From an uncultured Gemmatimonadaceae bacterium (GTDB lineage: Bacteria > Gemmatimonadota > Gemmatimonadetes > Gemmatimonadales > GWC2-71-9), in the NCBI GenBank assembly GCA_964596925.1, contig CAZQWQ010000040.1, positions 65,469-129,468 on the forward strand: a DNA stretch of 64,000 nt, read 5' to 3'. Both the position numbers and the translations under genes were made by a program. Below are positions 1,308-18,885 of this stretch, piece by piece (within the stretch, counting starts at the first letter, position 1; every line of letters begins with the position of its first letter). Below the pieces are notes generated by a model. It did not search any database. It was not told the DNA's origin and was given only the letters and a program-made list of their open reading frames with translations.

Positions 1308-2816
1308 CTAGCGGTTGACGCTCGCCGTGGGGCCGGTCGTGGCGGCGGCCGCCGCGGCCGCTGGCTCGAGCCCGTAGCGCTGGGGATTGCTGCACACCAC
1401 GGCGGCGGCGAGCACCTTGGGGACGTATTCCATCGTCTCCGATGGCAGCATCTTCAGACGGTAGAGGTGCCAGAAGTCGCGGTTCGCCTTTTTGAAGCCG
1501 CCCGGGGTCCGGGCGATCTTGTGCAGCGTTGCGCGCACGCCGTTCTCGCCCCGGTTATAGCTCGCCATCGCGAGCATGAAAGCATCCTCCCCGAATTCCG
1601 CCAGCAGGTTCGCCATGTGACGTGCCGCGGCACGGGTCTGTTTCGCGACGTCGGTGCGCTCGTCCACCTTCCCGTCGACCCGCAGCCCGAGCGCTCGGGC
1701 CGAGACCGGCATCATCTGCCACATCCCGCGCGCTCCCGAGGGATTGCGGGCCATCGGGCTGAACCGCGACTCGGTCCACGCCACGTACCCCAGCACCTCG
1801 GGGAGCTCGAGCGCCCGAAACTCCCGCACCACCATGGGCCAGTACCGCAGCTTGCGCTGGTACACTTCGCGCATGGCCACCGGCTGCTTCAACAACACGT
1901 TGATATGGTACTGGAGCCGCTCCTTGAATATCGGGGGCACCGCATAAGTTTCCGAATCGAACTGCCGCAGAATCGTCCGGATCTCTCGATCCAGCTCGTC
2001 GCCGGCATTCGCGACCTCTACGGCCTTGGCCCGGTCGGCCCGGGCCAAATCGGCGAGCGTGCGCTCGGCGTTGGACGTGGCATCCAGGAAGCGCTGCTCC
2101 AGCAGCGCTAGGCGGGTGGAATCCTGTTCGGCCTGCATCTGCTGCTGGATGTCGTGGATCTGCGCGTCGAAACGCCCCTTCGCGTCGAGCAGTTTCGCGA
2201 TCTGTCGATGCTGCAGGTAGATGACCGTTCCCAACACCCCGATCACTACCAGCGCAGCCGTTGCGACGATTCCCACCACGCGCACCCAGCGCTTCTTGGT
2301 CTGCCGCTTCATGACCTCGGAGACTTCCTGGACCGCGGTCGCGACGTGGTCCATGGTCTTGCGCGATCGCGTGCCGCCGGCCTTGGCCCGCTCCTCGGCG
2401 ATGCGCTGCGCCGTGAGGGCGAGAATCTGCTCCGTGCCCGAGCCGCGCACCGTGGCCTGCAACACCTTCGCGATGTCCGCGGCGTCCTGGCTCGGGTCGT
2501 AGGTGGCGTCGATCGTCACCTCGATGCGCGCCTCGGGCCCATCGGGCGCGCCGAAGCGGATCGTGTCCCCGGTGCGCAGCTCGTGCTTGGCGACGCGCTT
2601 CCCGTTGGCCTGCAGGCCTGCCGGCGTTTCGAGGTCGATCAGGTGGTAGACGCCGTCCTTGAGCACCACGGCGGCGTGATAGGGGGCCACCCGCGGGTCG
2701 CGCGCCGCGTCAAACCGGAGCTCGCAATCGTGCCCCGTGCCGATCCGCAGCCACCGCTTGTCGCTGCTGGTGGAGGTGCCCTGAAGCGAGCCGGAGAGAT
2801 GCGTGAAGCGAATCAT
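1308..2816 (-). CDS. FHA domain - TM helix - coiled coil - SLT lytic transglycosylase fusion protein
   Basis: N-terminus has an FHA-like fold signature (LRIGTGHDCELRF...YHLIDLETPAGLQANGKRV...GDTIRFG). It is followed by a hydrophobic helix (VVGIVATAALVVIGVLGTVIYL) and a long Q/E/R/A-rich helical region. The C-terminus carries SLT motifs (AWTESRFSP...ARGMWQMMP...ASYNRGENGV). Confidence 0.8.
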   Translation of the reverse strand: MIRFTHLSGSLQGTSTSSDKRWLRIGTGHDCELRFDAARDPRVAPYHAAVVLKDGVYHLIDLETPAGLQANGKRVAKHELRTGDTIRFGAPDGPEARIEVTIDATYDPSQDAADIAKVLQATVRGSGTEQILALTAQRIAEERAKAGGTRSRKTMDHVATAVQEVSEVMKRQTKKRWVRVVGIVATAALVVIGVLGTVIYLQHRQIAKLLDAKGRFDAQIHDIQQQMQAEQDSTRLALLEQRFLDATSNAERTLADLARADRAKAVEVANAGDELDREIRTILRQFDSETYAVPPIFKERLQYHINVLLKQPVAMREVYQRKLRYWPMVVREFRALELPEVLGYVAWTESRFSPMARNPSGARGMWQMMPVSARALGLRVDGKVDERTDVAKQTRAAARHMANLLAEFGEDAFMLAMASYNRGENGVRATLHKIARTPGGFKKANRDFWHLYRLKMLPSETMEYVPKVLAAAVVCSNPQRYGLEPAAAAAAATTGPTASVNR

Positions 2817-2892: not shown

Positions 2893-4977
2893 CTAGAACC
2901 GGAACGTCAAGCCGGCGTACAGGAGATCGTGCGCTTCGATGCCGCCGTCCTCCCGGTACCCGGACACAATAATGAACAAGGAGCGCGCCAGACTCACGTC
3001 CAAGTCCGCGGAGACCCAGCGGATATTCAGGGTCGGTGCCGCCGTCCTGTCGTGCTCGGTGCGCCAACCGGAAGTCAGCTGCACGCTGCCCCGACCGAAT
3101 GGCTCGATCCCGAAGGAGACCGAGTTCAACCACCCCTGGCGCCCCCCGGTCGTGTAGCGGGTGCTGCGGGACCGCAGGCTCATCCCCAGCGGAGTGAGGC
3201 GATCGGCCCCGAGGGCCAACGTGAATGTGTTGGCCGTCCCGCTCGAGGCGCCGCCGTTCGTGCGGGCGTCGACGGAGGCTTGGAAATGCCGCGCCGCCCG
3301 GACGGAGAACCCCCCCCACACGCCGCGCCGAAAGGTGTCGTCGAACACTGTGGCCGGGTTGACCACGTCGCGATAGAGGCGCGCGCTGCGCCGGTTGTCC
3401 ACACCGGTCGTGAGGCTGAATCCGGTAGCGACGAGAAACTGAATGTTGGCGAACGTGCTCGTAGGCGAAACCGCCCGCTCGCCGTCGATGCGCCGCCAGG
3501 GTCGGTAGTAGTCAACCTCCTGGACCGCGTAGATCGAAAGGCGGCGCGTGACGTAGTTTCCCTGCAGGTACATGAACTCCCGGTTCGTGTAGCCGTTCAG
3601 GTACGAGCCGCTCGCCCCCAGCGTCACCGACCACCGTCGCAACGACTCAGGGCGATTGTGGCGGCGCAGATACCCGCCCAGCAACGCGACGTCGCTCGAG
3701 AAGCCCAGGTTGATCAGCTCCGGCTGCGTCCCGGCGAACAACCCGTAGTCCCACGCCGGCAACCCGACCTCGGCAGACGCACCGTCCACCAGTCCCACCG
3801 AGGAGATCCCCGGGGCGTACTGGCGTCCGGTCGTGAACCGGTACGGCGACCCTGGCGCCTGCCAGGAGACGGCCGCCTGATACACGCGGGTCTGGTCATG
3901 ATGGTTGGTGCCACCGGGCAGCACTTGCACCTGGTGGCGGCTGCGCAGGTCGAGCACGAGCCCGATCGGTGACCCCCCCAATCCGACGCCCGTGAGACGG
4001 ATGTCCCCTGATGGCTGTGAAAATCGCCCGCCAAGGGAATCACGCTGCTCGACGGACAGGTAATAGAGCCCGATCCGGCCGCGGATTCTGCCGACGTTCG
4101 ACCGGCGGGACGGACGTGGCGAGACCGGGCGCGGCGCCGGCGCGCGGGCCGTGGCGGCGGGGCTCGAGTCACGCGCCGCGTCAACGGGCTGGAACCGCAC
4201 CGAATCGCCAAGCACCAGGCTGTCGGTCTTGCTGACGATTTGGCACGAAGACTGGTGGGTGGAGACGAAGGCGACTCGAAGCTCGGCGACCGAACGCCCG
4301 GCTCGAACGACATTCACTCGGATGCCTTCGGCCAGCCCTTCCGCCTTCCCCGCACTGATGTACACCGAACTGCTCGTCAGAAACGTCACCCGTGCCGTTC
4401 TGGTCGACGGCCCCGCCGGTGCGGGCAGACGTGATGCCACTGGTGGAGGCACCGGTGGTAGCCCCGCCATGGAAGGCGCAGCGACGGCCGAGTCTGACCG
4501 CGGTGCAACGCGCCCCGGTGGGGACACGCGCGGTGGTTGGGGCGCGGCTGGCCGGGTGGGCGACACCGGCGCGGGCGGCTGGGGTCGGGGCGCCGCCGGC
4601 GCATCGACGGCCGGAGGTCTCAAAACCGGCGGAGACGGAGCAGCCGGCGCGGCTACCGCGGAGTTCGGACGACCAGCGGGCACAAACCGGGCGGAGTCGC
4701 CCGCGATGAGCGCGAGTGGTCGACTCGTGATCTCGCCCTTCATCTGATGGGCACCGAGCGAAATGACCCTCAGGATGGCCACGGGGCGACCGCCGCGCAC
4801 GATCTCCACGCGGGTCCATTGGCGCACGCCCTCGGAGGTCCCCGCGTCGATGGACACGGTGCCGGACGTTACCTCGATCACGCGCGCCCAGCGATACGGA
4901 TCGTCCTGCTGACCCAACCCGGCGGACGCCGGCAACAACAGGCCGGCCACCAATCCCCATTCCAGCCTGCCGCGCAT
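2893..4977 (-). CDS. Outer-membrane beta-barrel protein with two repeated N-terminal domains and a Pro/Ala-rich linker (candidate porin partner of the cytochromes)
   Basis: I chose the internal ATG at 4977 (MRGRLEWGLVAGLLLPASAGLGQQ, signal-peptide-like), which overlaps the upstream stop as TGATG. The C-terminal ~385 aa have alternating beta-strand-like composition and end in ...YAGLTFRF, an aromatic terminus typical of OM barrels. No family name recognised. Confidence 0.65.
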   Translation of the reverse strand: MRGRLEWGLVAGLLLPASAGLGQQDDPYRWARVIEVTSGTVSIDAGTSEGVRQWTRVEIVRGGRPVAILRVISLGAHQMKGEITSRPLALIAGDSARFVPAGRPNSAVAAPAAPSPPVLRPPAVDAPAAPRPQPPAPVSPTRPAAPQPPRVSPPGRVAPRSDSAVAAPSMAGLPPVPPPVASRLPAPAGPSTRTARVTFLTSSSVYISAGKAEGLAEGIRVNVVRAGRSVAELRVAFVSTHQSSCQIVSKTDSLVLGDSVRFQPVDAARDSSPAATARAPAPRPVSPRPSRRSNVGRIRGRIGLYYLSVEQRDSLGGRFSQPSGDIRLTGVGLGGSPIGLVLDLRSRHQVQVLPGGTNHHDQTRVYQAAVSWQAPGSPYRFTTGRQYAPGISSVGLVDGASAEVGLPAWDYGLFAGTQPELINLGFSSDVALLGGYLRRHNRPESLRRWSVTLGASGSYLNGYTNREFMYLQGNYVTRRLSIYAVQEVDYYRPWRRIDGERAVSPTSTFANIQFLVATGFSLTTGVDNRRSARLYRDVVNPATVFDDTFRRGVWGGFSVRAARHFQASVDARTNGGASSGTANTFTLALGADRLTPLGMSLRSRSTRYTTGGRQGWLNSVSFGIEPFGRGSVQLTSGWRTEHDRTAAPTLNIRWVSADLDVSLARSLFIIVSGYREDGGIEAHDLLYAGLTFRF

Positions 4978-6242
4978 CAGTGCCGCCCATCGGGATGGCA
5001 GCGGTAGCAGGCCTGGCTGTCGTACGAATAGCCGGAGCGGCCGGAGTGCTTCGGATCCATTTCGCTCTGGCGGTGACACGACAGACAGTCGAACTGCCGG
5101 TAGTCACTCGGGTTGACGTGACAGGTAGAGCAGGAGTCCCACCGCCCCCGATGGGCTCCCGAATAGATCGGGAAGTATTGCGCGTCGTGGTTGGTGTAGG
5201 TCGCGGAGGTCCAGAGCGTCGTCGTGTGGCACGCCGCGCAATCCGTCGGGAACTGCGCCTGCTGGTGGTTCGGGTCGGTCGTCGTGTTGTAGTCGGTCTG
5301 GTGACACGATACGCACGTCGTCGGCTTCGCTTGGTACACGCCGTCGCCGTGACACTGGTCGCAGGTCGCCTGGATGTGCGCTCCGGTGAGGGGAAACCCG
5401 GTGTTGCCGTGGTTGAACGACGCGGTAGTCCATGTGACCGTAGTGTGGCACGCCGTGCAGTCGGTCGGGAACTGCGCCTGTTGGTGGTTCGGGTTATTGG
5501 TGTTGTTGAAATCCGTTTGATGGCACGACACGCACGTCGTTGGCAGCGCGCCAAACCCGCCGGTCCCGTGGCACTGGGCGCAATTGACGGCCAGGTGCGC
5601 CCCGGTCAGAGGGAACCGCGTGGCGTTGTGGTCGATTCTCGCCCCCTGCCAGCTCACCGCGGCATGGCATTGCTCGCAATTCTGCGAGAACCCGCCGGCC
5701 GCGTGATCCGGATTGCGGGTGTCCTGATAGTCCCTCAGGTGGCAATCGAAGCACGACGTGGAGCGGGCGACGAAGGACATCTGTCCCGACGACGCCCGCG
5801 TGTGACAGCTCTCGCAGTCGACGGCGATGTGGGCGCCGCTAAGGGGGAAGCGCGTGAGTTGGTGCGCTCGCAACATCCCCGTCCGGTCGATGAAGCTGCG
5901 CGGCGTATGGCAGCGCGCGCACGAAGTGCCGAGCTCGCCCTGGTGCGGGTCCTTGTGACACGAGACGCAGTCGCGTGCGGCGCCCTTGAAGGTGAGGGAC
6001 GTATGGCACGATCGGCAGGTGACGGTGGCATGCGCGCCGTCGAGCGGGAATCCGGCCGCCGCTTTGCTGTGATCGAACCTCGCGCTGATCCGCGCCGGGG
6101 TCCACGCCTCGGAACTGTGGCAGACGGCGCACTGCTGCGCGAGCCGTCCGTGCGGATTCTGGGTATCGGGCCGCTGGGCGGCTGCCCCGGCGGGCATGCC
6201 GGCAATCAGCGTGCACCACAGGACCTTTGACCGGAGGTTCAT
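4977..6242 (-). CDS. Periplasmic multiheme c-type cytochrome, 16 CxxCH motifs
   Basis: Start is ATG at 6242 (MNLRSKVLWCTLIAGMPAGAAAQ signal), in an ATGA overlap with the upstream stop. I counted 16 CxxCH motifs in 421 aa. Modules of the form F(D/N)H..FPL(T/S)GAH..CxxCH recur, resembling doubled-CxxCH/cytochrome c7-c3-like repeats. The 801-aa ORF-track version is an artefactual 5' extension. Confidence 0.9.
   Translation of the reverse strand: MNLRSKVLWCTLIAGMPAGAAAQRPDTQNPHGRLAQQCAVCHSSEAWTPARISARFDHSKAAAGFPLDGAHATVTCRSCHTSLTFKGAARDCVSCHKDPHQGELGTSCARCHTPRSFIDRTGMLRAHQLTRFPLSGAHIAVDCESCHTRASSGQMSFVARSTSCFDCHLRDYQDTRNPDHAAGGFSQNCEQCHAAVSWQGARIDHNATRFPLTGAHLAVNCAQCHGTGGFGALPTTCVSCHQTDFNNTNNPNHQQAQFPTDCTACHTTVTWTTASFNHGNTGFPLTGAHIQATCDQCHGDGVYQAKPTTCVSCHQTDYNTTTDPNHQQAQFPTDCAACHTTTLWTSATYTNHDAQYFPIYSGAHRGRWDSCSTCHVNPSDYRQFDCLSCHRQSEMDPKHSGRSGYSYDSQACYRCHPDGRH
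5187..5615 (-). repeat. Intragenic tandem duplication of a 73-aa (219-nt) tri-heme module in the 16-heme cytochrome
   Basis: The residues 210-352 region contains FPLTGAH.A..C.QCHG.G......PTTCVSCHQTD.N.T..PNHQQAQFPTDC.ACHTT..WT.A twice with near-identical sequence. For example, GTCGGGAACTGCGCCTG(T/C)TGGTGGTTCGGGT occurs at ~5246 and ~5465. Confidence 0.8.
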
Positions 6243-8236
6243 GGACGGACTCCATCCCCGTGGCAAGACTCGCAGCGGGCGGAAACGGGACGATATCGGA
6301 CCATGCGCGCGTTGCCCGGACCGACGGCTTGTGGGTGGCACTTGGCGCACGGCACATTGGCGTGCCCACCGCGCAGGGGGAACTTCGTGTCCCGATCGTG
6401 ATCGAAGCGCGACGCCGGGGCGAATGCGTCGGGATCGTGACAGCTCTCGCACCGGCCGCGGTCGCGCCGGTTGGCGAACTGATCGCCGTGCGGCGTATCG
6501 TGACACCCCTGGCACCCCTTCGCGGACGACGTGAACAACAACGGCGCCCCCGTCCAACGGACCAGTACGAGGGACGACTTCGCCGGGGGGCGCCGCAGCT
6601 CGCCATGACAGCTGACGCAGGGGACGGCGCGATGGGCCCCCTCGAGCGTGAACGGGTACCGCGCGTGCTGCGCGACGTCGATCGTGGACGGCCGGTAGCT
6701 CCGGACAGTGTGACACCCGAGACATCCGGTGGGCACAGGGTGCGCCCCGCCGGCGGCGAAGCGCCCCTGGTGCGGGTCGACGTGGCACGAAACGCACTCG
6801 AGCTCGCCGAGTCGGAACAGCACCGCGGCCTTCCCGAGCGTCGTCGTCCGTGGCAGCGGCGCGAGACCGGTGCGCTTGCCACCGTGGCAGGCCTTGCAGC
6901 TGATCTCGACGTGCTGGCCCTCGATCCGGAACCGCGTCGCAGCGTGGGCGGCGACGGTGAACGTGCTCGGCGTCCAGCCCGCCATGTCGTGGCAGGCCGA
7001 GCATTCGCCGTTGTCCGCTCGGACCGTGAGCTGCCCCCCGTGGTCGTCGCGATGGCAATCCACGCAGCGCGCAAACGCTGGACGCATCTGGATGCGCGCG
7101 GACCCGAGCTGTGCGGCGAGCACACCAGGCGGATTCTTCACGTGGCAGGAGACACAGGGGACACGCTGATGCTTCCCTTCGAGCGGGTACTTCGTCTTGC
7201 CGTGCTGCGCCACCGTGAACGCCGCGACCTTGAATCCGGCCACCGTGTGACACGAGCCGCAGTCCACGGCAACGCCGGCGAGGGTCGCGGTGCCGGCGTG
7301 CGGATCCGTGTGGCAGTCGGTGCACCTGGCGAACGGTGGGTTCTTGGTCCTCAGGCCGGGCACATCGTGGCACTTGGCGCACGTCACGCCGGCATGCTGC
7401 CCACGCAGCGGGTAGCGCGTGCGGTTGTGATCGAAATTGCCGCGGTCGATCACCTGGAAGCCCCTGGTCACATGGCAGTCACGGCAGGCCCCCGTGAACC
7501 GGCCCCGATGGGGATCGGCGTGACATGCGAGGCAATCCCGATGGGTGACCGGCTTGAACACCGGCACCGTGTCGCCGGTTGCCGTCTTGTGGCAGGCGGC
7601 GCAGCGCACGTCCACGTGCTTCCCGGTGAGCGGGTAGGCCGATTTCGCGTGGTCGAAACGCGGCGCCGGTTTCCATCGTGCCTGATCGTGACAGGTGAGG
7701 CAATCCTGATTCAGCGCCCTCCGGTGCACGTCCTGGTGACACGCCGTGCAGGTTTGCTCCAGGCCAACCCAGCCCGCTGCGGCGCCCGTGCGCGGGGAGA
7801 GCGTGGCCGCCGCGCCGACCCGGTAGGAGGTCTTGTGGCAATCGGCACACTTCGTCGTTTGATGACGTCCTTCGAGCGACCAGCCCGCTTGGGCGTGGTC
7901 GAACCGGAGGACATCGCCGCCGGGCCAGCTGATCATGGAGAATGCGCGTCCAGCGTGGTCGGGATGACAGCTGGCGCAGCGCTCCCCCCGTCGCCGGGCG
8001 TGATACCCGCGGCCTTGCTGCACCAGCCAGGGGATCTCCTTGTGACATTGGAGGCAGAGCGACGTCATCTGCTCCTTTCCTCCACCGCCGTGACAGGAAA
8101 CGCAGCGTCGCGTCCCTTCGAGTTGCGCGTGAGGCTGCGCCAAGGGGCCGGGCGAAATCTGGGCTCGCGCGGCGGGCGCTCCGCCGAGGCTTGCCCATGC
8201 CGACACCAGTACGACGAGTGCGCCTGCACGCCTCAC
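6239..8236 (-). CDS. Multiheme c-type cytochrome, 23 CxxCH motifs
   Basis: The GTG at 8236 forms a GTGA overlap with the upstream stop; an alternative GTG lies at 8245. Signal-like N-terminus VRRAGALVVLVSAWASLGGAPAARAQ. I counted 23 CxxCH motifs in ~665 aa, with the same repeated H..(Y/F)PL.G.H...CxxCH...CxxCH.DPH modules. Confidence 0.85.
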   Translation of the reverse strand: MRRAGALVVLVSAWASLGGAPAARAQISPGPLAQPHAQLEGTRRCVSCHGGGGKEQMTSLCLQCHKEIPWLVQQGRGYHARRRGERCASCHPDHAGRAFSMISWPGGDVLRFDHAQAGWSLEGRHQTTKCADCHKTSYRVGAAATLSPRTGAAAGWVGLEQTCTACHQDVHRRALNQDCLTCHDQARWKPAPRFDHAKSAYPLTGKHVDVRCAACHKTATGDTVPVFKPVTHRDCLACHADPHRGRFTGACRDCHVTRGFQVIDRGNFDHNRTRYPLRGQHAGVTCAKCHDVPGLRTKNPPFARCTDCHTDPHAGTATLAGVAVDCGSCHTVAGFKVAAFTVAQHGKTKYPLEGKHQRVPCVSCHVKNPPGVLAAQLGSARIQMRPAFARCVDCHRDDHGGQLTVRADNGECSACHDMAGWTPSTFTVAAHAATRFRIEGQHVEISCKACHGGKRTGLAPLPRTTTLGKAAVLFRLGELECVSCHVDPHQGRFAAGGAHPVPTGCLGCHTVRSYRPSTIDVAQHARYPFTLEGAHRAVPCVSCHGELRRPPAKSSLVLVRWTGAPLLFTSSAKGCQGCHDTPHGDQFANRRDRGRCESCHDPDAFAPASRFDHDRDTKFPLRGGHANVPCAKCHPQAVGPGNARMVRYRPVSARCESCHGDGVRP

Positions 8237-9225
8237 CAGAGCCACGTCGCGCCCAACGCGACCACCACCGCCACGTGAATGAGCACGGCCACGAGGGCGG
8301 CAATCGCCACTGGGCGATGGGCCACATGCCAGAAGCGGAATACGGCGTGCGTGGCGTCGAGCATCCGCGTTTGTTGGGTGAGGGCCATCTCGCGCCGAGC
8401 GAGCCGCTGCACCCACCGCAACACCTGGTGGTCCTGCTTGCGGCGGTGTGGCCCGCCGCGCTCGTAGAGGAGGCGCAGTCGCTGCGTGGCCCGGCGGCGG
8501 GCGAGGTCGTCCGAAACGAGGCGCATCAGCGTGCCCCACAGGCCCTGCCGGACGACCGGGGCCCGGTCGGACGTCAGCGTCCGCTCGATCAGCTCCACGT
8601 CGAGCCCGGTAGTCTTGGCGATCTGCTCGAGCAGCGCCTGCCGCCGCGTCGCGATTTCGTCGAGCGTGAGCTCGATGCCGGCCTTGCTCCGGGGAATGCG
8701 CGCGTAGAGGTATCGTCCCACGATGCCGCTCGACCATACGACCATCATCGACCAGAAACCGAGTCCAATGAGACCCTCGAACCGCCAGGCGGCGTGGATT
8801 GCCACGAGGAGTGGAAGCACCAGCGCGGCGAGCACATGGACGTCGAGCCAGCGCGCGATGGTGCCGGTCCAGGCGAGCCACCGCGCCCGTTTGCGGATCG
8901 GGTACAGCCAGAGAAACAGGAAGATCGCGACGGCGACGAGCCCGGCGCTCTGGCCGACGTATCCCGACGGGCGGAGCCAGGGATGCAGGTAATGGCGCAC
9001 ACGCTCGGCGATCGGCAGGGTATAGTACGGGAGCCCGAGCAGGCAGATCGCCGCCAAGAGCGCGAAGACGACGAGCAGCAGGCGGCGCGACGCTCGGGGT
9101 TGCTGCCGCGGCGCGGGGAGAGACGGGCGTGGGCGCGACACATGGACACGGACCGGACCGCCGGGCTCCACGGGCTCCGGCCGTGGTCGCGACGGAGACG
9201 CGGACACGAGATCTGCTTCACGCAT
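8233..9225 (-). CDS. Polytopic inner-membrane protein with two H-x13-H transmembrane helices (candidate di-heme b-type cytochrome)
   Basis: 330 aa with about 5 hydrophobic helices. One helix is LDVHVLAALVLPLLVAIHAAW (H-x13-H) and the last is WHVAHRPVAIAALVAVLIHVAVV (H-x13-H). A ~110-aa charged loop lies between helix 4 and helix 5. Translationally coupled to the 23-heme gene. Confidence 0.6.
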   Translation of the reverse strand: MREADLVSASPSRPRPEPVEPGGPVRVHVSRPRPSLPAPRQQPRASRRLLLVVFALLAAICLLGLPYYTLPIAERVRHYLHPWLRPSGYVGQSAGLVAVAIFLFLWLYPIRKRARWLAWTGTIARWLDVHVLAALVLPLLVAIHAAWRFEGLIGLGFWSMMVVWSSGIVGRYLYARIPRSKAGIELTLDEIATRRQALLEQIAKTTGLDVELIERTLTSDRAPVVRQGLWGTLMRLVSDDLARRRATQRLRLLYERGGPHRRKQDHQVLRWVQRLARREMALTQQTRMLDATHAVFRFWHVAHRPVAIAALVAVLIHVAVVVALGATWLW

Positions 9226-9442
9226 AGCGGCCTTCTATGCCTCGTCGGGCGAGGGCCTGTCGGTGATGGAAGCCACGCCGACGCGGGTTACGCGCGAGCC
9301 GGGTTGCGCGACGCGACCTCGGCAGGGCATGGTACCTGCGACTCAAGTTTCGTACGGCACTGTCGACTCGGGGTTCGAGCGCCCAACCGACGGCCACGTA
9401 ACGTGTTGGCGCGTGGCCGGCGTCACTGGCCACACGACTCCC

Positions 9443-9468
9443 TGCGCCATTCTACATCACGTGGCGCA
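9443..9468. promoter_or_regulatory. Inverted repeat TGCGCCA-N12-TGGCGCA in the divergent intergenic region of the cytochrome / FeS-flavoprotein cluster
   Basis: The 7-bp arms lie at 9443-9449 and 9462-9468, about 45 nt upstream of the 9510 ATG. Candidate operator only. Confidence 0.25.
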
Positions 9469-9509
9469 TTCTGCGACAGGGGGCGGCCGCCATAATCTAT
9501 GAAGGAGCG

Positions 9510-10856
9510 ATGGACAGCATTCTGATTTACCTCGTGTTCGCGGTCATCCTCTGCGTGCCGGTCGTGTCACACCTGCGGCGCATGCGGAAAAAGGAGGCCG
9601 CGGCACTCGCCGCCGCCAAGCGGTCGCGGTTGTCGACCGAGGGCCCCAGGGCCCAGCACCCGCGCATCGACGTGAACCACTGCATCGGCTGCGGCGCGTG
9701 TGTGGTGGTGTGCCCGGAGGGCGACGTCCTGGCGGTGATCGCCGGAAAAGCGGCGATCGTGAACGGCCACAAGTGCATCGGGCATGGGCTGTGCGCCGAG
9801 GCCTGCCCGGTCGGCGCGATCGAGATCGTGATGGCGAATCCCAGTATCGCCGCCGACCTGCCGTGCCTCTCTCGAGAGTTCGAAACGAACGTGCCCAACC
9901 TGTTCGTCGTCGGCGAGCTTGGCGGGCTCGCGTTGATCAAGAATGCCGTCAATCAGGGACGCGACTGTATCGACACGATCGCCGCCCGGCTCACCCGCTC
10001 CCGACCCGCAGCCGGGGCACCGGGCGTTCGGGACGTGATGATCGTCGGCGCCGGCCCGGGCGGCATCAGCGCTTCGCTGCGTGCCGTCGAGCGCAAATTG
10101 AGCTACGTCACGTTCGAGCAGGATGAATTCGGCGGGACCGTCGCGAAATACCCGCGCCAGAAACTCGTGCTGACGAGCCCTGTGGAATTTCCGCTGTACG
10201 GCAAATTCAAGAAGCTCCAGTTGTCCAAGGAAGAGTTGCTGCGTTTCTGGCACAAAGTCCACAAGGAGTCCGGCCTCGCGGTGCAAACCGGCGAGAAGGT
10301 CGAGAGCATCCACAAGGGGGACGACGGCGTGTTCATGATTGCCACCGCCCGGGGCCGCTACCGTGCGCGAGCGGTGATCCTCGCTCTCGGACGTCGCGGC
10401 AGCCCTCGCAAGCTGGAGATCCCGGGCGAGGCGTTGCCGAAAGTGATGTACAGTCTGTTGGACGCGGAGGCCTATACTGGCGCGCGGATCCTCGTCGTGG
10501 GCGGCGGGGACAGCGCCGTGGAAACTGCCCTGGGCCTGGCCCACCAGCGCGGCAACACGGTCACCTTGTCTTATCGCAAAGAAGCATTCAGTCGCATCAA
10601 GGAGCGTAACACGCAGCGTCTCAACGAGTATGTCAAGAAGGGCCGACTCACGGTGATCTTCAACTCGCAACCCGTCGAGATCCGAGAGCAGTCAGTCGTC
10701 CTCGAGGTGGCGGGTCAGACCCGAGAGCTGGCCAATGACTATGTGTGGGTGTTGGTGGGCAGCCTGCCGCCGAACGAGTTCCTCCACCAGGCGGGCGTCC
10801 AGCTAGGAACGCACGATCTCACCGCAGCAGCGCGTGCCGCCGCACAGTCCGCGTAA
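9510..10856 (+). CDS. Membrane-anchored 2x[4Fe-4S]-ferredoxin domain fused to an FAD/NAD(P)-dependent pyridine-nucleotide oxidoreductase domain
   Basis: GAAGGAG RBS upstream of the ATG. N-terminal TM helix ILIYLVFAVILCVPVV. Cluster motifs CIGCGACVVVCP and CIGHGLCAEACP. Two dinucleotide folds, VMIVGAGPGGISASL and ILVVGGGDSAVETAL. No CxxC redox-disulfide motif seen. Confidence 0.85.
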   Translation: MDSILIYLVFAVILCVPVVSHLRRMRKKEAAALAAAKRSRLSTEGPRAQHPRIDVNHCIGCGACVVVCPEGDVLAVIAGKAAIVNGHKCIGHGLCAEACPVGAIEIVMANPSIAADLPCLSREFETNVPNLFVVGELGGLALIKNAVNQGRDCIDTIAARLTRSRPAAGAPGVRDVMIVGAGPGGISASLRAVERKLSYVTFEQDEFGGTVAKYPRQKLVLTSPVEFPLYGKFKKLQLSKEELLRFWHKVHKESGLAVQTGEKVESIHKGDDGVFMIATARGRYRARAVILALGRRGSPRKLEIPGEALPKVMYSLLDAEAYTGARILVVGGGDSAVETALGLAHQRGNTVTLSYRKEAFSRIKERNTQRLNEYVKKGRLTVIFNSQPVEIREQSVVLEVAGQTRELANDYVWVLVGSLPPNEFLHQAGVQLGTHDLTAAARAAAQSA

Positions 10857-10921: not shown

Positions 10922-11302
10922 TCAGGTCGCTGCGTCCCCCGGCAGCACGGCGCGCACGACTTCCAGCAGCTCGTCCTTGGCGAACGGCTTGCTCAGGGTG
11001 CGAGTCGCGCCCAACGCCGCGGCGACCGCGTTCAAGTCACCGGGGCCGGCGCGGAGGCCGCCGGACATGGTGATGATCTTGACCGCCGGCCATTCGCGAC
11101 GCAGGCGCCGGATGGTGGCGATTCCGTCCTGGCCCGGCATGTAGATGTCGGTCAGCACCAGGTCCACCGCTGCGTCGCGCATCAGCCGAATCCCCGCCTC
11201 GCCCTCGCCCGCTTCGAGCACCTCGTACCCGGCGCGCTCGAGGATGCGGCGCGCGACCCCGCGGATAGCCGCGTCGTCATCGATCAGCAGAATGCGTTGC
11301 AC
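10922..11302 (-). CDS. Single-domain response regulator (CheY-like receiver)
   Basis: GTG at 11302 is preceded by GAGGGGGAC and lies 8 nt after the upstream stop. Receiver motifs ILLIDDD...LVLTDIYMPGQDG...KIITMSG...LSKPF. Confidence 0.85.
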   Translation of the reverse strand: MQRILLIDDDAAIRGVARRILERAGYEVLEAGEGEAGIRLMRDAAVDLVLTDIYMPGQDGIATIRRLRREWPAVKIITMSGGLRAGPGDLNAVAAALGATRTLSKPFAKDELLEVVRAVLPGDAAT

Positions 11303-11309
11303 GTCCCCC

Positions 11310-12653
11310 TCACACCCCCGCCTCGGCTTCCCACACCTGCGCGCAAGTGGGGCAGAACCCGTGACTGAACTCGGCCTCCGAATGATCCCGGACGTAGGAC
11401 TCGATCTGCTGCCACGTCCCCTCGTCATTGAGCACCTTCCGGCAGTTGGAGCACACCGTCACCAGCCCGCGCAGCGTCTTGACCTCGTGCAACGCCGCCT
11501 GCAGCTCGTGCAGCATGGTCTGGAGCTTCTCTTCGGCGCGCTTGCGGGCCGTGATGTCGCGACCGGCGCCGAACACCCCGGTGATCTTGCCGGTCCCATC
11601 CTTGATGGCGCCCTTGGTGAACAGCAGCGTGCGGGTCTCCCCCGCCACCTCTGTGCTTTCCTCGGAGGTCTCGTTCTGACCTGACTCCGCGATCCGCTGG
11701 TCTACCTCGACCATTCGCTGGGCCAGCCCTGGGGCAAACAGCTCGGCATCCGTCTGGCCCATCATCTCCTCCGGCGCCCGCCGCAGAATCTCGGACGTGA
11801 CCCTGCTTACGAGGAGGTAGCGCCCGGTCAGATCCTTGGCGAAGATCACTTCCCCGCTGCCCTCGACCACCGCCGTCAGGAGTTCCCGGCCCTGGCGCAC
11901 GGCGTGATGCATCGCCGCGAAGCGGCGATCGATGACCGACGTGGAAATGGCGACGGCCATGGCCAGGAGGGTGCCGGCGCCGATCGCGTAGGCGCCCAGG
12001 ATGCCAATGCCGATCGTTTGCGCGGCGTTCACCGGCACGTCCGACCCGCTGAACGTCGCCGCCGCCATGCCGGTGTAGTGCATGCACGGCACCGCGGCCC
12101 CCATGAGCAGGGCGCTCCCGGCCTTGCGCCAGCCCCAGGCTTCCCGGCCGGCATGGCCGTAGCGGAACGCGAGCCACAGGGCGACGGCGGACACCACGAT
12201 CGCGATGATCACCGAGAGCGTGACGAGAACGGCGTTCCAGTGCATCTCGGCTGGGAGGCGCATCGCCGCCATCCCGGTGTAGTGCATCGTCGCGATCCCG
12301 GAGCCCATCACGAGACTGCCGGCGATGGTGCGTCCCACGCTGAGCCGCTCCCGACTGGCGACGTAGAGCGCCACGGCGGACGCGAACATCGCGGCGACGA
12401 GCGATAACGCGACGGTGGGGATGTGGTCCCGCACCGGGACCGGCAACCGGAACGCCAGCATGCCGGTGTAGTGCATGGACCAGATGCCGAGGCCCATGGC
12501 GCACGCTCCACCTGCGAGCCAGAGGGCCCGAGCGCGCCCGCTCGCGGCCGTGACGCGGCCGGCGAGATCGAGCGCGGCGCCGGCGGCCAGCACGGCGATC
12601 ACTACGGACAGCGCCACGAGGCGCGGATCGTAGCTGCCGGCCAGCGCGGTCAC
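11310..12653 (-). CDS. MHYT-domain membrane sensor with PAS domain and C-terminal CxxC-x29-CxxC tail
   Basis: Three MHYTGM motifs sit in successive TM helix pairs (the MHYT domain). These are followed by a PAS-like region (VIFAKDLTGRYLLVS...DAELF...KDGTGKITGVFGAGRDITARKRAEE). The tail is TLRGLVTVCSNCRKVLNDEGTWQQIESYVRDHSEAEFSHGFCPTC. The GTG start overlaps the upstream stop (GTGA). Confidence 0.85.
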   Translation of the reverse strand: MTALAGSYDPRLVALSVVIAVLAAGAALDLAGRVTAASGRARALWLAGGACAMGLGIWSMHYTGMLAFRLPVPVRDHIPTVALSLVAAMFASAVALYVASRERLSVGRTIAGSLVMGSGIATMHYTGMAAMRLPAEMHWNAVLVTLSVIIAIVVSAVALWLAFRYGHAGREAWGWRKAGSALLMGAAVPCMHYTGMAAATFSGSDVPVNAAQTIGIGILGAYAIGAGTLLAMAVAISTSVIDRRFAAMHHAVRQGRELLTAVVEGSGEVIFAKDLTGRYLLVSRVTSEILRRAPEEMMGQTDAELFAPGLAQRMVEVDQRIAESGQNETSEESTEVAGETRTLLFTKGAIKDGTGKITGVFGAGRDITARKRAEEKLQTMLHELQAALHEVKTLRGLVTVCSNCRKVLNDEGTWQQIESYVRDHSEAEFSHGFCPTCAQVWEAEAGV

Positions 12654-15175
12654 GAGGCGTCCAGCACTTCGCGCACTTTGCGCATCAACGCGGTCGGGGT
12701 GAACGGCTTCTGCAAAAAGGCCAGCCCCGGCTCGAGCACGCCGTGGCTCGCCATCGCGTCGTCTGTGTAGCCCGACATGTAGAGCACCCGCGTTTCCGGC
12801 CGCAGCTCGGCCAGGCCCAGCGCCAGGTCGCGACCGCTTTTCCCCGGCATCACGACGTCGGTGAGGAGGAGGTGCACCGCGCTGATGTGATCGTGGGCAA
12901 TTGCCAGGGCCTCGTCCGCGTTCTGGGCCACCAGCACCCGATACCCGTGTCGCTGCAGCAGTCCCGTTACCAGCGGGCGCAGCATCGCGTCGTCCTCGGC
13001 CACGAGCACGGTCTCCGTCCCCGTGAGCGTCGCCGCGGGCTCGGCGGCGACGGCGAGCCCATCGGCCGGCGCGTCCACCGCCGGCAGGCAGATCGTGAAC
13101 GTCGCGCCCCGTCCCGGCTCGCTCTCAACCCGAATGTACCCCTCCGACTGGTGCACGATTCCATACACGGTCGAGAGGCCAAGCCCCGTGCCCAGCCCCT
13201 GTTCCTTGGTCGTGAAGAAGGGCTCGAAGATGCGAGCTTGCGTCTCGGCATCCATCCCGCTGCCCGTGTCGCTCACCGACAGCAGCACGTACTTTCCCGG
13301 CACGACCGGCTCGCGCGGCGGCCCGTGCGGCCCGGGCAGCTCGACCGGCGCGGTTTCGATCCGGAGCGTGCCGCCGGTCGGCATGGCGTCGCGAGCGTTG
13401 ACCACGAGGTTCATGAGGACCTGTTGCAGCTGGCCGGGATCGGCGCACACGTTGCCGGCGTCGGGGTGCAGCTTCAGGCGCAGCTCCACGTCTTCGCCGA
13501 TGAGGCGTACCAGCATCTTCCTCAAGTCCTCGACCAGGTCGTTGACGGTCAGGACGGCGGTCTGGAGCAGCTGGTGGCGGCTGAACGCGAGCAGCTGCTT
13601 GGTGAGCGAGGCCGCCTGGGTCGTCGCCTTCCGGACCTCGGCCAGATCCTGACGGGCGCGGCCCTCCTCGGGCAGGTCGTCGCTCATCAGATCCACGTAG
13701 CCGAGGATGACGGTCAGCAGGTTGTTGAAGTCATGCGCCACCCCGCCCGCCAGCCGCCCCACCGCCTCCATCTTCTGTGCCTGGCGGGCCTGCTCCTGGA
13801 TCTGCGTGAAGGCAAGCGCGTTGCCGAGCTGAGTGCCGACGACGCGGGCGAAGGTGAGCCATTCTTCTGTGTCGAGGCCTGCTCTATCGGACCCCATCAC
13901 CAGTGCGCCCATCGGCAGCCCATCCCCGGGGATCCTCGCGATCACGAGCCCCGCGACGCCCGACCGTTCCAAGATCTCGCGACCGGCGGTCTCGGGGACG
14001 GCGGCCGACGGGAGCGCCAACGCGGCGTGCGCGGTGATGAGCTGATCGAGCAGGTCGGGATGGCCAAAGAACATTTCCACCAGGGCGCGACGCACGCCGG
14101 CAAAACCGATGGACGCCCGGAGCGACAGGGCACCTCCGGGGTTCCTTAGGTATAGGGCGCCCTCCGAGACGCCACCGGCCTCGAGACAGCGGGCGAGAAC
14201 CTCCTCGACAGCCTGATTCGAGTCGGCCGTCCGGACCAGTACGCGGGAGATACCGTCGATCGCCGCCACCTGCGCCGCCAGAGCCGCGTTGCGCTGGGCG
14301 AGCGTCGCCGTCATGGCCAGCTGGCGCTCGAGCTGGTGCACCACCCGCTGGAGATGCGCGGTCGTCGTGTGCTCGTGCACGATGACCCGGGGCGCGACCC
14401 GCTCGGGGGAGCGGCTGGTCTCGAGCGCGGCAATCACCGCGCCCAGATCGGGGGTACGAGTCACGAGCGCGTCGGCGCCCATTTTGACCGCCAGGTCGCG
14501 GTCCTCCTGCTCGACGTAGGCCGAGGAGGCGAGCACCACCGGCAGGTGCGCCAGGCGAGGATCCTGACGCACGGCGCGGCACAGTCCATAGCCATCCAGT
14601 TTCGGCATCAGGACGTCACTGAGGATGGCGTCGGGTGGATTGTGGCGCGCGCGGGCGAGCGCGTCTTCCCCATCTACGGCAGTTTCCACGGCGTAGCCCG
14701 CGTCGGAGAGCCGACGGACCGTCAACTTGCGTTGGATCGGCTCGTCGTCGGCGACCAGGATGCGACCCCGCGAGCCGGAGGATTCCGCGCTCTCCGGCGC
14801 GGCCGGCAAGTGGGCGCGGATCGCCTCCAGCAGCCGCGATGGCGCGACGGGCTTGGCCAGGAACTCGTGGAACAGGACCGCCGCGATCCGTTTCTCCTCG
14901 TCCCGCGTGAGCATCCCGGACATCGCGATGATGGGAATATCCGCGCATTGCGGCAGGGCACGCAGCCGTTCCGCCAGGTCGAACCCGCTCATGCCCGGCA
15001 GACGCACATCCTGGACGATGAGCGCTGGCGGGTCGCCGGCGGCCGCCTCGAGCGCCTCGCGACCGTCGCCCGCCTCTCGCACCACGTAGCCCGCGCCTTC
15101 CAAAGTGACGCGGAGCATCTTCCGAATAATCGGATTGTCCTCAACCACGAGGATGGTCAATTGGCGGTCGCTCAC
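12650..15175 (-). CDS. Hybrid sensor histidine kinase (REC-REC-GAF-like-HisKA-HATPase-REC)
   Basis: GTG at 15175 forms a GTGA overlap with the upstream RR stop. Two N-terminal receivers (ILVVEDNP...[10 protein letters not shown] and ILVADDEP...[10 protein letters not shown]). H-box [14 protein letters not shown]-boxes DTGSGM/GTGLGLS, and a C-terminal receiver (VLVAEDD...[10 protein letters not shown]). Confidence 0.85.
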
Positions 15176-15564
15176 GCCGCACCTCCGCGCGCAGCGCCGT
15201 CCAGATGGGAGGCGACGATCCCCGGCAGCGTGCGCGTGTTGAGCGGCTTCGCGATGTACCCATCGCACCCAGCGGCCAGGATGCGCTCTTCGTCGCCCTT
15301 CATCGCGTAGGCGGTCAGACCCAGGATGATGATGTCCCGCGTCGAGGGGGTGGCCTTGAGCTGCCGGGTCAGGCTGAGCCCGTCCATCCCGGGGAGCTGG
15401 ACATCCATGAGGATGAGCCGGGGATGGAATTCCTTGAGGAGGGCGAGGGCCTCGTCCGCGTCCTCTGCCGTGCGAACGTCGTAGCCCTCGGCGGCGAGCA
15501 GCACCCGGGCGAGCTTCAGGTTCATTGGGTTGTCGTCCACGATGAGGATCGGCTCACCGGACAC
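15172..15564 (-). CDS. Single-domain response regulator
   Basis: 130 aa. Motifs ILIVDDNPMNLKL...ILMDVQLPGMDG...GLTAYAMKGDEE...GYIAKP. Confidence 0.9.
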   Translation of the reverse strand: MSGEPILIVDDNPMNLKLARVLLAAEGYDVRTAEDADEALALLKEFHPRLILMDVQLPGMDGLSLTRQLKATPSTRDIIILGLTAYAMKGDEERILAAGCDGYIAKPLNTRTLPGIVASHLDGAARGGAA

Positions 15565-18010: not shown

Positions 18011-18062
18011 ACGATGGCGGGGTTCGTGATGGAAGCGGTGCCGCAGGAAAGACTTTCTTCGT

Positions 18063-18122
18063 GACTCCTCCCCCTCCCGACTCGGTTTTGGAAGAGGAGT
18101 CGGGGCGACTCACTGAGTCGCC
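18063..18122. promoter_or_regulatory. Nested palindromes carrying five GANTC sites between the LuxR-RR gene end and the hybrid kinase start
   Basis: GACTCCTC (18063-70) pairs with GAGGAGTC (18094-101). CCGACTCGG (18077-85) is palindromic. GGCGACTCAcTGAGTCGCC (18104-18122) is a 19-nt perfect palindrome. GACTC/GAGTC occur at 18063, 18079, 18097, 18107 and 18115. The function (terminator or operator) is undetermined. Confidence 0.4.
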
Positions 18123-18177
18123 GTACGCCGGTGGTGTATTATCTAGAGTGCATCCTTTCTCCTTCCCATGGTATCAG

Positions 18178-18885
18178 TCATAGGACTGTCAGCCAGCGTC
18201 TTACAACTGGCTCAATTCCGTAACCCCAAAGGGCGACGGTGACTAGCGCCGTCAGTCCATGCTGGACGGCATACCGGATCAGATCGGCGCTTGTCTTGAG
18301 CTGCATCTTGCGCAACATCCGCGCGCGGTGCGTACTGACGGTCTTCGGAGACAGCCCGAGGTCCTGGGCGATCTGCTTCACGCTCTTGCCGACGCCGATC
18401 ATGCAGAGGACTTCGTATTCCCGGGGGGAGATCATCTCGTGCGGCAGCCAGGCGGCACGCGCGTCCAGCGCACCCGCCGCTCTCTCCGCCATCGACGGCG
18501 TGAGATACTTCCCGCCCCCGGCGACCTGCATGATCGCGCCGATGATCTCCCGCGGGGCCTGCTGCTTGGTGAGATAGCCGGCCGCGCCTTCCTTCATCGC
18601 GCGCACCGCAAACTGATCCTCCGGGTGCATCGTGAGGACCAGCACCTGCACGTTCGGAAACGCCGAACGGAGCTGGCGCAGCAGCCCCGGAAACGGCGCG
18701 CCCGGCATGGTGATATCCAGCAGCAGGACATCGGGCTCCGTGGCCCGCATCAACGCCACGGTTTCATCGCCATCGGCCGCCTCCCCGACCACTGTCAGCC
18801 CGCTGTCATCGGCGATGGTTTGCCGGAGCCCGGCTCGCACGAGCGGATGGTCGTCAGCGATGGCGACACGGATCGCGTCGGTCAC
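18178..18885 (-). CDS. NarL/FixJ (LuxR-type HTH) response regulator
   Basis: GTG at 18885 forms a GTGA overlap with the kinase stop. Receiver motifs (VAIADDHPLVRAGL...LLLDITMPG) and a LuxR HTH (SPREYEVLCMIGVGKSVKQIAQDLGLSPKTVSTHRARMLRKM). The 496-aa ORF-track version is a 5' artefact. Confidence 0.9.
   Translation of the reverse strand: MTDAIRVAIADDHPLVRAGLRQTIADDSGLTVVGEAADGDETVALMRATEPDVLLLDITMPGAPFPGLLRQLRSAFPNVQVLVLTMHPEDQFAVRAMKEGAAGYLTKQQAPREIIGAIMQVAGGGKYLTPSMAERAAGALDARAAWLPHEMISPREYEVLCMIGVGKSVKQIAQDLGLSPKTVSTHRARMLRKMQLKTSADLIRYAVQHGLTALVTVALWGYGIEPVVRRWLTVL

Follow-up and report, generated by a model that had tools for sequence, protein, structure and literature searches.

Five neighbouring genes of an uncultured Gemmatimonadaceae bacterium may together encode a conduit that carries electrons across the whole cell envelope. 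The genes, here termed A to E, occupy positions 2893-10856 of a 64,000-nucleotide stretch (positions 65,469 to 129,468 of contig CAZQWQ010000040.1, assembly GCA_964596925.1), which is called the window below and has a G+C content of about 68%. They encode a putative di-heme b inner-membrane protein (A), two multiheme cytochromes (MHCs; B is termed MHC1 and C is termed MHC2), an outer-membrane barrel protein (D) and an iron-sulfur (FeS) flavoprotein (E). With a probability of roughly 0.55, the five products form one trans-envelope conduit, in which electrons pass from NAD(P)H to flavin, to FeS clusters, to two b hemes, along a cytochrome wire and out through the barrel. A sequence-only reading of the same stretch had proposed the logic of such a conduit. 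This logic holds. The components with their motifs and folds are observed, as is the way they strictly occur together across phyla; electron flow, its direction and the substrate are what we infer from sequence, along with cofactor binding, contacts between the proteins, threading of the barrel and independence from quinones. The four-gene core A-D matches the architecture, as compared by description, of PCC3, which He et al. (2017, PMC5566968) predicted as a porin-cytochrome cluster of Proteobacteria.

Gene order and junctions

Genes A to D lie on the minus strand in that order and are chained by overlapping stop and start codons. Gene A (8233-9225, 330 amino acids), assigned from its motifs, an AlphaFold2 (AF2) model and an alignment, ends with CTC TGG TGA, and the start codon of B is the GTG of GTGA (8233-8236). 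Gene B (6239-8236, 665 amino acids) ends with CCA TGA, and C starts at the ATG of ATGA (6239-6242); both cytochromes were assigned from motif counts and Pfam. Gene C (4977-6242, 421 amino acids) ends with CAC TGA, and the ATG of TGATG (4975-4979) starts gene D (2893-4977, 694 amino acids), which was assigned from an AF2 model. Gene E (9510-10856, plus strand, 448 amino acids), assigned from Pfam and Foldseek, is transcribed divergently from A across a gap of 284 bp (9226-9509). These coordinates, overlaps and the divergent gap had been read correctly from the sequence at the outset.

The gap between A and E is presumed to hold the promoters of both transcription units. A scan with the sigma-70 consensus, which is uninformative for this phylum, returned no promoter-like sites in the gap, and terminator-like sites were fewer than the chance level in the same scan. 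Horizontal transfer of the cluster was considered and rejected, because the G+C content at third codon positions (GC3) of the five genes, 0.82-0.86, is the same as that of neighbouring genes.

Conservation of the cluster across phyla

The neighbourhood of the cluster was compared at ten loci anchored on the A family. These are the window; two Gemmatimonadota contigs (L001 and L002); plasmid pEMTOL02 of Emticicia oligotrophica DSM 17448 (L003); an Ignavibacteriaceae metagenome-assembled genome (L014); Sunxiuqinia sp. A32 (L015); and further contigs L016, L018, L019 and L020. Every one of the ten contains an A-type protein, a protein of 435-448 amino acids with Fer4 and Pyr_redox_3 domains, at least two MHC genes and a barrel. 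The barrels outside the window have 530-755 amino acids, match no Pfam family and are homologous to D (blastp E values of 6e-41 to 1e-10).

The E homologue is divergent in Gemmatimonadota. It follows the A homologue directly, or after one TPR gene, in L003, L014, L015 and L018, and it is last in the cluster in L016, L019 and L020. The presence of E in 10/10 loci at three different positions argues for a functional rather than an accidental linkage of A and E, and it backs, across phyla, the earlier suggestion that the locus carries a self-contained input module.

All five proteins have orthologues in the Emticicia operon on pEMTOL02. The membrane protein there (281 amino acids) shares 30% identity with A (E 8e-36), the NAD(P)-binding protein (440 amino acids) 40% with E (E 1.6e-116), and a 23-heme cytochrome (635 amino acids) 32% with B over its full length (E 9e-112). 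A 40-heme cytochrome (1001 amino acids) is 41% identical to C (E 6e-87), and a hypothetical protein of 538 amino acids is 23% identical to D over 209 residues (E 5e-13). A tblastn search of plasmids with A and B found only Emticicia pEMTOL02, and no proteobacterial plasmid.

The MHC2-type gene is always immediately upstream of the barrel gene, abutting or overlapping it, and one additional locus (L017) has an MHC2 and barrel pair. A tandem mini-module follows the main cluster in L001 (8038-11587) and consists of a 315-residue A paralogue, a 13-heme MHC2 and a short barrel of 528 residues. It is followed by FHA-SLT and aminotransferase genes like those that flank the window cluster, and the window genome is without this mini-module.

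Several clusters outside Gemmatimonadota carry accessory genes that are not in the window cluster. A fused cytochrome c biogenesis gene (ccsA) lies directly upstream of the Emticicia cluster on the 100-kb pEMTOL02, and a GW-domain protein is encoded downstream of the barrel in Emticicia and Sunxiuqinia (accessory genes at L003 6818-9904 and 18632-19402, and at L015 16446-17162). A small TPR protein with weak CcmH/CycH-like TPR matches is encoded inside the operon in L014 (9893-10486) and L018 (11257-11805).

Inner-membrane protein A

Protein A has five transmembrane (TM) helices, with a cytoplasmic helical insert of about 120 amino acids (residues 176-295) between TM4 and TM5. Its AF2 model (predicted local distance difference test score (pLDDT) 84, predicted template modelling score 0.74) places helices at residues 43-68, 89-113, 123-144, 151-175 and 263-323. 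The protein contains the motif Wx3Hx13H twice, as W126-x3-H130-x13-H144 (WLDVH-x13-H) and W299-x3-H303-x13-H317 (WHVAH-x13-H), so that the polytopic protein with two H-x13-H helices described earlier is confirmed. An SGxxG motif is present as SGIVG (8716-8730).

Eleven residues are invariant in the alignment of 48 A-family sequences, which includes relatives only 24-33% identical to A: G95, Y108, W126, H130, H144, G167, G170, W299, H303, H317 and G325. The four invariant histidines are candidate heme ligands, encoded on the minus strand at 8836-8838 (H130), 8794-8796 (H144), 8317-8319 (H303) and 8275-8277 (H317). The insert is conserved in the family, at about 100-120 amino acids, and is predicted to be cytoplasmic by the positive-inside rule. 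In the model, this orientation would therefore place H130 and H303 near the inner leaflet of the inner membrane and H144 and H317 near its outer leaflet.

No Pfam or NCBIfam model exists for the A family. Window A matches Ni_hydr_CYTB (cytochrome b561) with 17.4 bits against a cutoff of 30.1. When 55 members of the family were scanned singly against Pfam, 35 matched DUF4405 (best E 2e-5), 26 Ferric_reduct and 18 Ni_hydr_CYTB. Heme b binding has been demonstrated by experiment for a DUF4405 protein, which has also been likened structurally to MsrQ (PMC11334425). The four invariant histidines, the recurrent matches to di-heme b families and this heme-binding DUF4405 protein make the assignment of A as a putative di-heme b protein well supported, and the family is predicted to be remotely related to the ferric-reductase/DUF4405 di-heme b proteins.

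The A family is large. A word-index search gave more than 1,670 matches, 2,344 representatives were found at 50% identity (E <= 1e-3), and a non-Gemmatimonadota profile gave at least 6,549 matches. Named hosts belong to Gemmatimonadales, Ignavibacteria, Bacteroidota (including Sunxiuqinia sp. A32), Fidelibacterota, Krumholzibacteriia, Acidobacteriota and Myxococcota, and no Proteobacteria were seen among the named members.

One database protein of 863 amino acids, P0241, joins an A-type membrane protein to an E-type flavoprotein. It was rejected as a natural A-E fusion: its central 150 or so residues look out-of-frame, and a separate TM helix is still present in the E part. The entry probably arose when a frameshift or mis-call joined two adjacent co-directional genes, and counts as adjacency only. 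The "PreT" names given by JGI (the Joint Genome Institute) to some plain A homologues may derive from such joined entries.

Flavoprotein E

Protein E begins with an N-terminal TM helix (9510-9581, plus strand, as are the other parts of the gene), which is followed by a ferredoxin-like FeS domain (about 9657-9839) with the motifs CIGCGACVVVCP and CIGHGLCAEACP and matches to Fer4 families above threshold. Next comes an FAD and NAD(P)H domain (about 10032-10817) of the thioredoxin reductase (TrxR)/YpdA fold, recognised through Pyr_redox_3/2 and Foldseek (Pyr_redox_3 E 1.6e-44). The TM-anchored FAD/NAD(P) oxidoreductase named in the sequence-only reading is therefore correct. Its cofactor domains are predicted to be cytoplasmic, because the N-terminal helix is followed by a basic stretch (positive-inside rule).

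The label of two [4Fe-4S] clusters needs revision. The first FeS motif is canonical in the window; in Bacteroidota and Ignavibacteria, Ser or Thr takes the place of its second Cys. The second motif (9774-9809, residues 89-100) is C-x2-H-x2-C-x3-C-P in 6/6 aligned homologues, with His in place of Cys, and is not classical. The His in motif 2 and the loss of the motif 1 Cys in Bacteroidota and Ignavibacteria suggest clusters of His-ligated 4Fe or 3Fe types.

The solved structures closest to E are YpdA/Bdr (7a7b, 6.5e-28), thioredoxin reductases and TrxR-type ferredoxin-NADP reductases (FNRs). E scores 173 bits with the YpdA/Bdr model TIGR04018 (cutoff 339.9) and 89 bits with the thioredoxin reductase model TIGR01292 (cutoff 343). 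Its FAD motif is GAGPGG, without the YpdA Cys, and the flavin domain contains no conserved CxxC. Identification of E as YpdA/Bdr or as a thioredoxin reductase was rejected on these scores and on the missing catalytic Cys or CxxC, and kinship of fold is supported. Because a TrxR/FNR-type fold occurs here without the YpdA Cys or CxxC, E is read as a putative NAD(P)H:FeS electron-transfer flavoprotein.

Multiheme cytochromes B and C

Proteins B and C contain 23 and 16 CxxCH motifs, exactly as counted earlier, and neither contains a Cx3-4CH motif. They are the only open reading frames (ORFs) with two or more CxxCH motifs in the 64-kb window, where composition would give about 0.001 such motifs per protein by chance. 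Heme spacing is 28.9 amino acids per heme in B and 26.3 in C. Both match Pfam Cytochrome_C7 (E 5e-29 in B and 5e-16 in C), and C matches PF22113, the MtrC/MtrF pentaheme domain II/IV, with 44 bits against a cutoff of 30. No NCBIfam model scored above its cutoff with any of the five proteins. The repeats had been taken for doubled-CxxCH modules; they are mainly c7/c3-type triheme modules, and Paired_CXXCH matches are minor or sub-threshold. Protein C consists of one heme followed by five triheme units of about 73 amino acids. As had been proposed, both proteins have Sec-type signal peptides and no lipobox, a judgement made by eye.

The two cytochromes differ in how their heme number varies among homologues. 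Full-length MHC1-type homologues have 20 or 23 hemes. In the MHC2 series, drawn from the homologues of L001-L003 and L014-L020, the heme numbers are 10, 13, 13, 16, 16, 22, 25, 28, 34, 40, 52 and 55, all equal to 3n+1. This rule holds for 12/13 MHC2 homologues, the exception having 36 hemes and a truncated gene call. Most MHC2 proteins have an N-terminal NPHG...CxxCH and a C-terminal CxxCHPxG. It appears that the MHC2 wire lengthens by whole triheme units of about 73 amino acids. Since full-length MHC1 stays at 20 or 23 hemes while MHC2 varies from 10 to 55, a nearly fixed MHC1 and a growing MHC2 would agree with a periplasmic span that is constrained and a distal end that is free.

Outer-membrane barrel protein D

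Protein D ends with ...AGLTFRF, which resembles a beta-signal. Its AF2 model, built with a 42-sequence alignment, contains a barrel of 22 antiparallel strands at residues 298-693 (2899-4086, minus strand); the mean pLDDT is 76, and the barrel is mostly above 85. The earlier proposal of a C-terminal outer-membrane barrel with this ending is thus upheld by the model, as are the two extra domains on its N-terminal side. A Sec-type signal peptide without lipobox, judged by eye (about 4915-4977), precedes two FlgT_C-like beta domains of six strands each, at residues 29-98 (4684-4893) and 193-262 (4192-4401), all on the minus strand. The linkers between domains are Pro-rich and disordered in the model. 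FlgT_C itself is matched weakly by 5/42 D homologues (best E 1e-6).

The homologues of D (n=93) are all from Gemmatimonadota where named and fall into classes of about 700 and about 500-530 amino acids, the shorter of which is without the first small beta domain. The part conserved in all of them is the C-terminal 500 or so amino acids, comprising the second beta domain and the barrel, and is thus longer than the 385 or so residues first delimited. D has no Pfam or NCBIfam match. Foldseek of D against PDB returned generic outer-membrane barrels, first the 24-strand ushers PapC and FimD and then AlgE and OprD, and MtrB was not in the top 50. Every barrel homologue whose context was examined adjoins a multiheme cytochrome gene (11/11 contexts, with twelve barrel genes); barrels that are routinely found without adjacent cytochromes, which would have spoken against a conduit, were not encountered.

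Proposed electron path and alternatives

On the favoured reading, E would be anchored by its N-terminal helix at the cytoplasmic face, where it would take hydride from NAD(P)H onto FAD and pass electrons on one at a time by way of two FeS clusters, of which one would be His-ligated or 3Fe. Two stacked b hemes in protein A would then carry the electrons across the inner membrane, with H130/H303 as the pair on the cytoplasmic side and H144/H317 as the pair on the periplasmic side, as in ferric reductase/NOX and in MsrQ with its flavin reductase. The 23-heme wire B would bridge the periplasm. Protein C, encoded by a gene in translational coupling with that of the barrel, would sit in, or protrude from, the 22-strand barrel of D and deliver electrons to an extracellular acceptor, for example Fe(III)/Mn(IV) minerals or humic matter. 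The tethered FlgT_C-like periplasmic domains of D probably dock the complex.

Electron transfer from NAD(P)H (-320 mV) to mineral acceptors is downhill, and the membrane potential aids electrons that move outward. Outward flow is favoured because of these thermodynamics, the heterotrophic hosts and the NAD(P)H-type partner. A wider claim is more tentative and, in our estimate, falls short of even odds: that a quinone-independent, NOX-like form of extracellular electron transfer (EET) is widespread, running from a membrane-anchored ferredoxin-FNR fusion (E) to a di-heme b protein (A, at least 6,500 sequences) and on through a modular wire across the periplasm and a 22-strand barrel.

Several points weigh against the proposed conduit. 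B and C both lack a lipobox and any recognisable secretion tag, which leaves C with no evident route to the surface. All matches of the A family to di-heme Pfam families are below curated thresholds, and Foldseek of the A model against PDB found no significant relative (best E 1.3). A quinone site may be present in A. Known hosts such as Emticicia are aerobes, and we know of no report of metal reduction by them. In addition, the PCC3 of Sideroxydans lithotrophicus ES-1 is lowered on Fe(II) compared to thiosulfate (PMC8788666; 10.1101/2025.02.27.639646).

The same parts could in theory work in reverse, although this is unlikely. Fe(II), Mn(II), reduced humics, Fe(0) or a partner cell would then supply electrons from outside the cell; from the cytochromes these would reach the quinone pool by way of A, or NAD(P)+ by way of E. 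Multiheme wires are reversible, and the Hmc/Tmc complexes of sulfate reducers, whose HmcA model gives weak matches to B and C, carry periplasmic electrons inward via a cytochrome b to a cytoplasmic FeS protein. However, to reduce NAD(P)+, electrons from Fe(II) would have to climb more than 0.3 V and move against the membrane potential, the identified hosts come from heterotroph lineages rather than from lithotrophs, and an obligatory NAD(P)H-type flavoprotein is better suited to a donor role. PCC3 was found in the genomes of Fe(II) oxidisers and modelled as an uptake route (PMC5566968), but the ES-1 cluster is not induced by Fe(II) (PMC8788666).

A rather improbable arrangement has another entry point. 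A would be a quinol- or quinone-active cytochrome b that feeds the conduit from the quinone pool like CymA, ImcH or CbcL, with E as an accessory, such as an NAD(P)H:quinone feeder or a repair or redox-poising reductase, that is not in line. As far as is known, all characterised Gram-negative EET routes begin at quinol dehydrogenases, and E, which has its own TM anchor, need not bind A. Nevertheless, E accompanies A in 10/10 loci across phyla whatever its operon position, the cytoplasmic insert of about 100-120 amino acids in A has no obvious role other than docking, and the terminal cluster of E, with its non-Cys ligand, would resemble those at which electrons exit other FeS chains. In the model of He et al., the membrane proteins of PCC3 and PCC4 act on quinones (PMC5566968).

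It is very improbable that the cytochromes are a periplasmic electron store or reductase with D as an ordinary porin or exporter encoded alongside, as the missing lipoprotein and secretion signals, the generic Foldseek matches of D (ushers, AlgE, OprD) and the lack of MtrB in the top 50 would allow, since the MHC2 gene abuts or overlaps the barrel gene at every locus, mini-modules included, the contexts seen contain no barrel homologue apart from such clusters, a wire of as many as 55 hemes (by our estimate about 40 nm) would be too long for the periplasm, and a 22-strand barrel without a predicted plug has no other obvious role here.

Neighbouring genes

A dense signalling cluster (10922-20348, minus strand) converges on gene E. 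Its kinases are a hybrid histidine kinase that has three receiver domains (12650-15268), another hybrid kinase (15554-18010) and a PAS-PAS HisKA_3 kinase (18882-20348). They are accompanied by a response regulator (10922-11428), an MHYT-PAS membrane sensor (11310-12653) and a single-domain receiver (15172-15564), all on the minus strand. A PAS/HisKA/receiver set also adjoins the E homologue in L002. Because MHYT domains are thought to sense O2, NO or CO, this cluster could regulate the conduit.

On the other side, 76 bp downstream of D and on the same strand, lies a gene for a protein with an FHA domain, a transmembrane segment and an SLT lytic transglycosylase domain (1308-2816, minus strand). 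An FHA-SLT gene is also found downstream of the cluster in L001. The protein may belong to the same unit and could serve, for instance, to remodel peptidoglycan locally around a wire that spans the periplasm. Elsewhere in the window, an ORF of 1,232 amino acids (33176-36874, plus strand) has a gene-like GC3 of 0.81 and no Pfam match at E <= 1e-5.

Significance

To our knowledge, the well-characterised Gram-negative EET routes enter the envelope from the quinone pool via CymA, ImcH or CbcL. An NAD(P)H-type FeS-flavoprotein paired with a di-heme b protein at the base of the wire would, if true, be a different inner-membrane solution, and this step would resemble that of eukaryotic ferric reductases and NADPH oxidases. 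Candidate electroactivity would then reach abundant soil and sediment phyla (Gemmatimonadota, Bacteroidota and Ignavibacteria) that are not usually counted as metal respirers. If the quinone-independent, NOX-like route is true, members of the FCB (Fibrobacterota-Chlorobiota-Bacteroidota) group, Acidobacteriota and Myxococcota, including ordinary aerobic heterotrophs, could discharge reducing power onto minerals or humics in a previously unrecognised way.

The proposal is directly testable, as the family occurs in the cultured strains Emticicia oligotrophica DSM 17448 and Sunxiuqinia sp. A32. The 3n+1 series of MHC2 proteins, from 10 to 55 hemes, is a natural length series in which effects of wire length can be studied. 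PCC3 has been an orphan prediction since 2017, and the window family suggests a specific way in which its membrane step may work.

Comparison with known systems

The proposed window conduit resembles MtrCAB of Shewanella and MtoAB/PioAB in combining a periplasmic MHC, an outer-membrane barrel and an outer cytochrome into a wire across the outer membrane, and C is above the Pfam threshold for the MtrC/MtrF pentaheme domain. However, D has 22 strands compared to 26 and no MtrB-family match. The window cytochromes score 62 and 30 bits with the DmsE/MtrA model TIGR03508 (cutoff 192) and 18-21 bits with the OmcA/MtrC model TIGR03507 (cutoff 209). They carry 23 and 16 hemes compared to 10 and 10, and neither is a lipoprotein. 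Inner-membrane entry would not be via CymA and quinol, as it is in MtrCAB.

Ferric reductase/NOX, MsrQ-Fre and the DUF4405 flavinylation-associated cytochromes share with A two helices that each carry a pair of His at a distance of 13 residues. In ferric reductase/NOX and MsrQ-Fre, NAD(P)H feeds a trans-membrane, quinone-free delivery via a cytoplasmic flavoprotein, as would be the case in the window. A differs from ferric reductase, NOX and MsrQ by its five TM helices and its cytoplasmic insert, and its matches to these Pfam families are below threshold. E is a TM-anchored fusion of a ferredoxin domain to a TrxR fold, and not an FNR-type NOX domain or Fre. The acceptor in the window would be a 39-heme wire instead of O2, an Fe(III)-chelate, MsrP or a flavinylated protein.

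The Hmc/Tmc complexes of Desulfovibrio likewise join a periplasmic MHC, a membrane cytochrome b and a cytoplasmic FeS protein, but they lack an outer-membrane barrel and their FeS protein is HdrD-like, and B and C score only 21-23 bits with HmcA (cutoff 400). The Pcc/Ext clusters of Geobacter also pair an outer-membrane barrel with periplasmic and outer MHCs. In Geobacter Pcc the periplasmic cytochrome is an octaheme protein and the outer cytochrome is a lipoprotein, and we know of no dedicated pair of membrane protein and flavoprotein there.

The closest architecture is that of PCC3, and the comparison rests on published descriptions of the architecture rather than on proteobacterial PCC3 sequences. 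PCC3 consists of a porin with 22-42 predicted strands (22 in Leptothrix cholodnii SP-6), a very variable "extracellular" MHC, a "periplasmic" MHC whose hemes number 21-27 and an inner-membrane protein (PMC5566968). The last has about 300 amino acids and five TM helices, of which TM4 bears SGxxG and both TM3 and TM5 bear Wx3Hx13H, and was likened to the ferric-reductase domain with di-heme b character; the MHCs are built from repeats with 22-39 amino acids per heme (PMC5566968). In Sideroxydans lithotrophicus ES-1, Slit_1446-1449 encode the membrane protein, the periplasmic cytochrome, the extracellular cytochrome and the porin in that order (PMC11429942), and Slit_0867-0870 of the same strain are a further example. 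The A-B-C-D order of the window is that of Slit_1446-1449. Window A fits the description of the PCC3 membrane protein in size, TM helices, SGxxG and two Wx3Hx13H motifs. The heme spacing of B and C falls within 22-39, their repeats are triheme, and the barrel has as many strands as the L. cholodnii porin. In both systems one cytochrome is near-fixed in heme number and the other varies widely.

The window family differs from PCC3 in several respects. PCC3 is reported from Alpha-, Beta- and Gammaproteobacteria only, whereas the window family occurs in Gemmatimonadota, Bacteroidota, Ignavibacteria, Fidelibacterota, Krumholzibacteria, Acidobacteriota and Myxococcota. The periplasmic MHC of PCC3 has 21, 24 or 27 hemes (Gallionellaceae cluster 20) compared to 23 in the window and 20 or 23 in the family. 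Heme numbers of the second MHC are irregular in PCC3 and follow 3n+1 in the window family, and the window barrel has FlgT_C-like N-terminal domains. Finally, no FeS-flavoprotein is among the listed PCC3 components, whereas E is present at all ten loci compared here; He et al. also tabulated, as a class apart, clusters of "MHC + two-HX13H membrane protein + other redox protein" (PMC5566968).

The sequence-only reading had not recognised the combination as a described system. This does not stand for the A-D core, which has the parts and order of PCC3, and it appears to stand for the addition of the flavoprotein. The literature on Gemmatimonadota, Ignavibacteria, Bacteroidota and Prolixibacter offers surveys of MHCs and of Pcc/Mtr-like clusters; no description of the flavoprotein-containing set was found in it, which is weak evidence given its incomplete coverage. 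An FeS-flavoprotein as the fifth component of a PCC3-like cluster appears to be undescribed. Compared by description, the proposed conduit is a variant of the predicted PCC3 kind that ranges widely among phyla and has a flavoprotein as its input module.

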